A stretch of 64,000 bases of DNA from Amphiscolops sp. MND2022 (lineage: Eukaryota): NCBI GenBank assembly GCA_964187785.1, contig OZ076409.1, positions 43,960,001 through 44,024,000 of the forward strand, given 5' to 3'. The translations under genes and the position numbers were made by a program. Positions 2,823 to 22,098 of the stretch are shown one piece after another. The number at the start of each line of letters is the position of its first letter. Within the stretch, counting starts at the first letter, position 1. The notes beneath the pieces are model-generated. The model saw only the letters and a list, made by a program, of their open reading frames with translations. It did no database searches and was not told the origin of the DNA.

Positions 2823-22098
<19,276 letters not shown>

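Follow-up and report, generated by a model that had tools for sequence, protein, structure and literature searches.

The window analysed here, a stretch of 64 kb, carries on its forward strand (2823-22098) a gene for an ionotropic glutamate receptor (iGluR) subunit in which the gate-forming M3 region has been rewritten. No stretch of iGluRs is more conserved than SYTANLAAF, in which single substitutions lead to human neurodevelopmental disease. Bases 9084-9110 of this gene encode HYIAYLARF at the place of that consensus (codons CAC TAT ATC GCC TAT TTG GCC CGG TTC). As judged from the sequence, the gene is a xenacoelomorph clade-1 subunit of the AMPA class by descent, and it is a real, unusual and probably functional variant of a known family. 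It is not classed here with the canonical AMPA channel subunits, since its gate motif has changed and the acidic residue D590 is missing.

The part of the gene present in the window consists of nine exons, every one open, as had been claimed, and with GT-AG ends, and the joined frame, which begins in the S1 lobe, stays open for 490 codons until the stop. The spliced protein shows the domain order S1-M1-M2-M3-S2-M4 with a Q/Q/G filter. Four of the nine exons give matches to iGluR Pfam families and exons 1-8 are matched by relatives in tblastn searches. No amino-terminal exon was matched by tblastn upstream of 2823; the N-terminal domain lies outside the window. The first exon in the window (2823..3032; Pfam Lig_chan-Glu_bd, E 1.7e-17) encodes the S1 lobe with E402 and Y450 kept. 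Exon 2 (7004..7165) covers the end of S1 and the pre-M1 segment, where T480, R485, S516, F517 and P520 are kept and P478 is replaced by Ala. Exon 3 (8088..8305) encodes M1, with a Glu at its inner end, the loop, M2 and the QQG filter, G582 being replaced by Val and D590 by Asn. M3, the M3-S2 linker (P632 and I633 kept) and the start of S2 (G653, S654 and T655 kept) are encoded by exon 4 (9023..9221). Exons 1-4 are supported by splice signals and frame, Pfam and tblastn, and exon 4 also by its alignment to GluA2 and by relatives.

The rest of S2 is divided among exon 5 (9966..10040; splice signals, frame and a tblastn match of 67% to Convolutriloba P0151), exon 6 (10428..10600; splice signals, frame, relatives and tblastn) and exon 7 (11186..11343; splice signals, frame and alignment). 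Exon 6 keeps E705, M708, C718 and Y732 and carries Tyr at S729 and Arg at K730, and exon 7 continues through C773 into the pre-M4 segment with words typical of acoel clade-1 subunits. Exon 8 (20439..20548; splice signals, frame and tblastn) encodes M4 and is preceded by a 9.1-kb intron. Exon 9 (21931..22098) is tentative, since it is placed by splice signals and frame only, without homology support; it encodes a short C-terminal tail to the stop, and this predicted tail is devoid of the -TDV end found in relatives.

Several other features were observed in the window. Intron 7 contains a broken, LTR-retrotransposon-like relic on the reverse strand (approximately 12500-17500), made of many short frames in which Pfam detects integrase core and zinc-binding domains, and intron 8 contains an almost perfect inverted repeat of 73 nt, whose arms are one nucleotide apart (21508-21654). 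Exons of a DPY19-family gene (Pfam Dpy19) are present on the reverse strand at approximately 27300-34100, convergent with the receptor gene, and an open reading frame at 63593-63976 (reverse strand) seems, by eye, to resemble the N-terminal portion of a chloride-channel protein of the CLIC type. A Polinton/adintovirus-like element occupies 41331-57530 and is bounded by 273-nt terminal inverted repeats with one mismatch. It codes for a double-jelly-roll capsid protein (48617-49861, reverse strand), an integrase (49918-50856, reverse strand), an A32-type ATPase (50891-51967, forward strand) and a polymerase-like frame recognised by eye. Inside the latter, an exact 745-nt tandem duplication (45968-46712 and 46714-47458), which may be an assembly artefact, gives rise to two overlapping frames. 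Either side of the element carries one copy of an exact direct repeat of 67 nt (41263-41329 and 57535-57601), with four extra bases before the repeat at the right end and none at the left. Polinton target-site duplications are short and 67 nt is far longer; the repeat may reflect an aberrant integration or an assembly effect.

Exon 4 residues 3-66 correspond to residues 597-660 of GluA2 (chain 4uqj_A), whose numbering is used throughout, and the three alignments shown are ungapped. They bear out the four motif changes that had been described, namely S615H, T617I, N619Y and A622R, the last of which is an Arg codon (CGG, 9105-9107) at motif position 8, the Lurcher site, where the window protein is thus non-alanine. 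Four further M3 changes, absent from that description, lie outside the nine residues: I613T and, in the continuation INVERL of the upper gate (9111..9128), where relatives were compared, L624I, T625N and M629L. Y616, A618, L620, A621, F623, E627, R628, P632 and I633 are kept. The motif, with five of the nine SYTANLAAF residues kept, is not canonical, and it clears the four-residue floor described in PMC6307864. Among the best 150 of 1,668 exon-4 relatives (E<=0.001), Ala at position 8, Thr at position 3, Leu at position 10 and Thr at position 11 are each present in 150/150, Ser or Thr at position 1 in 150/150, and Asn at position 5 in 149/150. The departure of the window protein from the motif is not chance.

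An artefact, whether an assembly error, RNA editing or an alternative exon with a canonical M3, is the least probable of the explanations considered. The gene is known from a single assembly; however, at least nine of the 48 bases at 9081-9128 differ from any coding of a relative's sequence, and all these substitutions are in frame. Editing that would restore the canonical motif was rejected, since none of the seven changed codons in this interval is revertible by A-to-G or C-to-U changes. A compensated frameshift was rejected as well, because the changes are in frame and a canonical motif is absent from the other frames. An alternative canonical exon was rejected because the window contains only one exon for M3. 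Moreover, a two-copy sequence elsewhere in the window, the 273-base inverted repeats, differs at a single base between copies.

In Data S1 of PMC13520880 (Wang et al. 2026), for which sequences had been screened for the motif "or similar", all 54 sequences with M3 in the AMPA section of parts 1-4 read YTANLAA (two others lack M3, and one incomplete at M3 is excluded from the 54). The nine acoelomorph clade-1 sequences with M3 in part 1 all keep the canonical motif. Across Data S1, YTANLA occurs in 309 records and YTANLAA in 290; the 19 others comprise 17 with Ser at position 8, one with Val and one in which the residue was not seen. The ten Ser cases displayed are all outside the AMPA section, several being acoel NMDA-like records, and one divergent record has Gln at this position. 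A word search of the whole Data S1 gave no match to the motif of the window, and ANLAR, NLAK and YLARF, which represent Arg or Lys at position 8, gave none either.

Convolutriloba_17384.1, which PMC13520880 describes as divergent, was rejected as an orthologue, its motif being canonical. Database searches for the altered motif gave weak negative evidence: 17 candidates among longer proteins, none at E<=1e-10 with exon 4; no candidate among proteins of 36-116 amino acids; 381 pattern matches in metagenome contigs, none of them confirmed; and only ordinary Lig_chan clusters in an Atlas search with exon 4. Searches of the full-text literature, largely outside subscription papers, turned up neither a description of this gene nor an Arg at the Lurcher site, and six names for an Ala-to-Arg change at this site gave no match.

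The closest proteins were found through exon 6. Among 32 candidates, this search gave 22 proteins, two of which are acoel and have the canonical motif: Convolutriloba macropyga XP_075248823.1 (P0151) and XP_075262863.1 (P0152). Identity of the spliced protein is 59.9% (254/424) to the first and 57.1% (242/424) to the second, and 42.5-47.7% to the 14 other long AMPA/kainate-like proteins aligned (16 rows picked out of 172, long proteins being favoured). The placement in an iGluR phylogeny that the original prediction had proposed as a check groups the window protein with acoel clade-1 AMPA subunits. In a maximum-likelihood tree of S1-M4 (17 rows, with only two acoel proteins), it forms a trio with the two Convolutriloba proteins supported at 100/100, and the same trio is recovered at 100/100 from the ligand-binding domain (LBD) only and at 98/97 from the transmembrane domain (TMD) only. 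The AU test (p 0.11 and 0.056) does not separate the alternative orders within the trio, with the window gene beside the Convolutriloba pair or beside a single member of it. This grouping suggests that the host is an acoel. The clade-1 label rests on matching P0151 and P0152 by eye to Convolutriloba_10593.1 and _4664.1 in Data S1 of PMC13520880, and lineage words in S2 and pre-M4 are common to the window protein and acoel clade-1 subunits.

The clade-1 subunit of Hofstenia, 98007595, produces no current by itself. Both of the heteromers formed with clade-2 subunits need it, but it is gating-passive and adds little to their activation; mutations in its LBD shift potency 3-4 fold, while those in clade-2 subunits shift it 100 fold (PMC13520880). 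Part of an earlier suggestion, that the subunit is obligately heteromeric, gains support because the gene is a member of acoel clade 1, and the Hofstenia subunit of that clade does not make homomeric channels. The small shifts in potency are also consistent with a subunit that is a tolerated passenger, in which case clade-2 subunits would gate a 2:2 heteromer, the M3 changes would compensate one another and the acoel AMPA receptor would be near-normal. The retention of A618 and A621 agrees with this. However, the nine canonical clade-1 sequences of Data S1 part 1 indicate that a passive role by itself leaves the gate constrained, the A/C subunits hinge at A622 (PMC12074995), and two modified subunits suffice for opening of GluK2 (PMC6445585). 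We regard this explanation as unlikely.

The residues that bind glutamate are kept in the window protein, as had been claimed for R485, S654/T655 and E705: Y450, T480, R485, G653, S654, T655, E705, M708, Y732 and both cysteines. Section 7 of PMC6307864 includes R485, E705, G653 and T655 in the glutamate-binding set and, by its rules, glutamate is the predicted ligand. The Pro that is lost at P478 is also absent in three of the 16 panel rows. In addition, S729 is Tyr and the Leu preceding the helix-J Lys is Thr (exons 6-7); both are probably positions of the LBD dimer interface that affect desensitization. With respect to the pore, the predicted QQG filter was confirmed, and W578, A618, A621, P520, F517, P632 and I633 are kept along with it.

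The pore has lost the acidic residue at 590 (D590N) and carries Val at G582. Since A622R and D590N both move the pore charge in the positive direction, and acoel clade-2 subunits with QRG filters exist (Data S1 of PMC13520880), a charge-reversed pore can be envisaged, in which the outer-gate Arg and the missing D590, perhaps aided by a clade-2 partner that bears Arg, would produce an anion-permeable glutamate channel. However, Q586/Q587 and E627 are kept and A622 is described as a hinge and not as a filter residue (PMC12074995). Such a channel seems very improbable.

The neutral decay of the gene was simulated with substitutions only, on a core of 425 codons and 16 splice dinucleotides, with 2,000 runs per level. 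The core remained intact in 16.6% of the runs at 0.02 changes per site, in 1.5% at 0.05, in one of 2,000 runs at 0.1 substitutions per site, and in 0 of 2,000 at 0.15 and at 0.25. GC content is 55.5% at fourfold-degenerate sites (101/182) and 37.7% in introns. Changes in the LBD fall on 10 of its 87 deeply conserved sites and on 21 of the 54 whose conservation is restricted to clade 1 (two acoel relatives), p 0.0003. Taken together, the simulation, the GC contrast and the pattern of LBD sites indicate that purifying selection acted on the gene at least up to very recent times. A long-dead pseudogene was rejected, since neutral decay would have broken the frame and the splice sites. The reading of the gene as an iGluR subunit that is intact, binds its ligand and has an abnormal gate is supported, and four artefact routes, namely a second M3 exon in the window, editing, a compensated frameshift and a long-dead pseudogene, fail.

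A duplicate that was long selected and has been silenced recently, being now unexpressed or broken in N-terminal exons beyond the window, is a different matter. Its branch is long (Tajima p 3e-10 to 0.005), a broken retroelement lies in intron 7, searches found no orthologue, the upstream exons are not in the window and the tail has no -TDV end. Against this explanation, nine exons show no stop, frameshift or splice loss, neutral survival is already 0.17 at 0.02 and 0.015 at 0.05 substitutions per site, and recent silencing would not explain at least nine clustered changes. We consider it improbable, somewhat more so than the tolerated passenger.

The original prediction placed the change in the nine-residue motif. 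Four motif residues are indeed altered, but the changes are not confined there: the whole membrane domain (M3, the top of M4, M1 and D590) is accelerated. Under one model, the LBD branch of the window protein is 0.40 vs 0.20 and 0.34 for its paralogues, whereas the TMD branch is 0.76 vs 0.081 and 0.062, about 10 times faster. Conserved sites are changed at 18 of 57 TMD positions vs 10 of 87 LBD positions (p 0.005), distributed as 5/36 in S1, 5/51 in S2, 2/12 in pre-M1/M1, 1/9 in M2, 3/11 in lower M3, 7/13 in the gate and 5/12 in pre-M4/M4. The other 16 panel rows show 0-3 changes at 13-15 gate sites. The excess of the gate over the remaining TMD is not significant (p 0.087), nor are its 7/13 changes clearly above the 37/96 of clade-1-only sites. 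Clustering in M3 is modest after scan correction (p 0.21, 0.17 and 0.024 for windows of 10, 13 and 16 conserved sites), and this whole-protein correction weakens the proposal of tight clustering in the nine-residue motif. The robust signal is that of the membrane domain versus the ligand-binding domain.

This contrast bears on the possibility of a silent or inhibitory partner, a subunit that binds glutamate and assembles with others, or serves in trafficking or scaffolding, without gating, so that its TMD drifts and the current of its partners is dampened or abolished. This is a serious possibility, nearly as likely as the slow-closing heteromeric partner that we favour. A TMD evolving at about 10 times the paralogue rate with a near-normal LBD, and changes spread across M1, M3, M4 and D590, speak for it. 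T617I puts a hydrophobic residue in the narrowest ring of the gate and produces no leak in GluD1 (PMC10840383), and an Arg near the outer gate would be expected to repel cations. There is also a precedent in Lingula g16612, which abolished partner currents, though with a canonical motif (PMC13520880). However, QQG, W578, A618, A621, P520, F517, P632 and I633 are all kept, as are eight of the nine conserved sites of the M2 region, and in vertebrate receptors substitutions at three of the changed sites cause a gain of function.

Different reports describe what changes at the rewritten positions do in other receptors. In glutamate-activated GluA2, the gate is formed by T617, T625 and M629, and the M3 hinges are S615 in the B/D subunits and A622 in the A/C subunits (PMC12074995); all five residues are changed in the window protein. 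A618, the hinge of modulator-bound GluA2 in the same work, is kept. The substitutions S615A, S615C and S615Y slow deactivation and weaken desensitization (PMC5430913). In GluD2, constitutive currents of 1300, 740 and 1040 nA are reported for A654T, A654D and L656V, vs 18 nA for the wild type, and none for GluD1 T649I, which is the same change as T617I, or S647F, at motif position 1 (PMC10840383). The A654D change also reduced protein expression in cells (PMC10840383), so a strong leak could be harmful. In GluK2 A8C, opening by Cd requires just two subunits out of four, either A/C or B/D (PMC6445585). These mutant data suggest that three of the changed sites (S615, A622 and L624) point to easier opening, while T617I points to none. 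The retention of eight of nine sites in the M2 filter region, together with A618, A621, F517, P520 and W578, suggests that the pore is still in use.

We therefore tentatively favour, as a prediction from analogous receptors, a heteromeric partner subunit that is slow to close, weakly desensitizing and the source of a partly tonic current. The receptor gene would be expressed and selected and, like Hofstenia clade-1 98007595, its product would assemble with clade-2 subunits and not alone. Glutamate would still close the clamshell, and its pull would reach M3 by way of the linker, in which P632 and I633 are retained. The closed bundle crossing would be made less stable by His at S615, Arg at A622 and Ile at L624, as it is by different substitutions at these sites in vertebrate receptors, with Ile at T617 as a counterweight that may limit the leak. 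The outer-gate Arg622 and the replacement of D590, whose role in the pore is treated in section 7 of PMC6307864, by Asn590 would probably keep conductance and Ca2+ entry low and would weaken polyamine block. Against this reading, the effects of the eight-change M3 combination and of Arg622 are predictions from other substitutions, and the changes, including 5/12 in M4, would fit relaxed constraint on an unneeded channel as well as retuning.

A bolder version is that of a natural Lurcher receptor, whose gate evolved to stand open and which would supply a tonic, low-calcium leak in an acoel cell, tuned or even shut by glutamate. The rewriting of every M3 gate and hinge residue, rather than of the ligand-binding domain, would be part of this version, which we hold to be rather doubtful.

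The gene amounts to a natural experiment, in which Arg at the Lurcher site is combined with changes at S615, T617, N619, L624, T625 and M629 while the LBD is under selection. It would show a new mode of AMPA-class receptors (tonic or slow current), second-site neutralisers of a Lurcher substitution, or a gate-dead regulatory subunit. A direct test is within reach, as heteromers of acoel clade-1 and clade-2 subunits have already been expressed in oocytes (PMC13520880). Motif-based surveys could have missed genes of this kind.

The nearest relatives of the window protein, namely Convolutriloba P0151/P0152, Symsagittifera XP_063719087.1 and Hofstenia 98007595 (PMC13520880), share its ligand-binding set and QQG filter. 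However, the acoel clade-1 relatives all keep SYTANLAAF, D590, G582, P478 and S729, and the window protein is changed at each. Natural departures from the motif are known: it is weakly conserved in Lambda and some Phi subunits (PMC6307864), and NMDA-like acoel and AKDF subunits have Ser at position 8 (Data S1 of PMC13520880), where the window protein has Arg. None of the natural departures seen is of the AMPA class or has Arg or Lys at position 8, whereas the window protein combines both features. The nearest functional precedent for a leak is AKDF1 of Trichoplax adhaerens, a natural leak iGluR with non-canonical gating (Seljeset et al., 10.1101/2023.08.03.551817). Its leak is due to the loss of the acidic LBD residue 705, with Ala kept at the Lurcher site; in the window protein, by contrast, M3 is changed and E705 is kept, so that a hydrophobic replacement of the AKDF1 type is absent. 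Lurcher-site variants such as GluD2 A654T and A654D, GluA1 A636T and GluK2 A657C share with the window protein a non-alanine residue at position 8, and GluD2 A654D indicates that a charged residue at this site can give constitutive current (PMC10840383). These variants each carry one substitution, engineered or from disease, in a helix that is canonical apart from it, whereas the Arg of the window protein is genomic and accompanied by seven further M3 changes. By analogy, the window subunit may work like a Lurcher receptor, but one built by more than one substitution.
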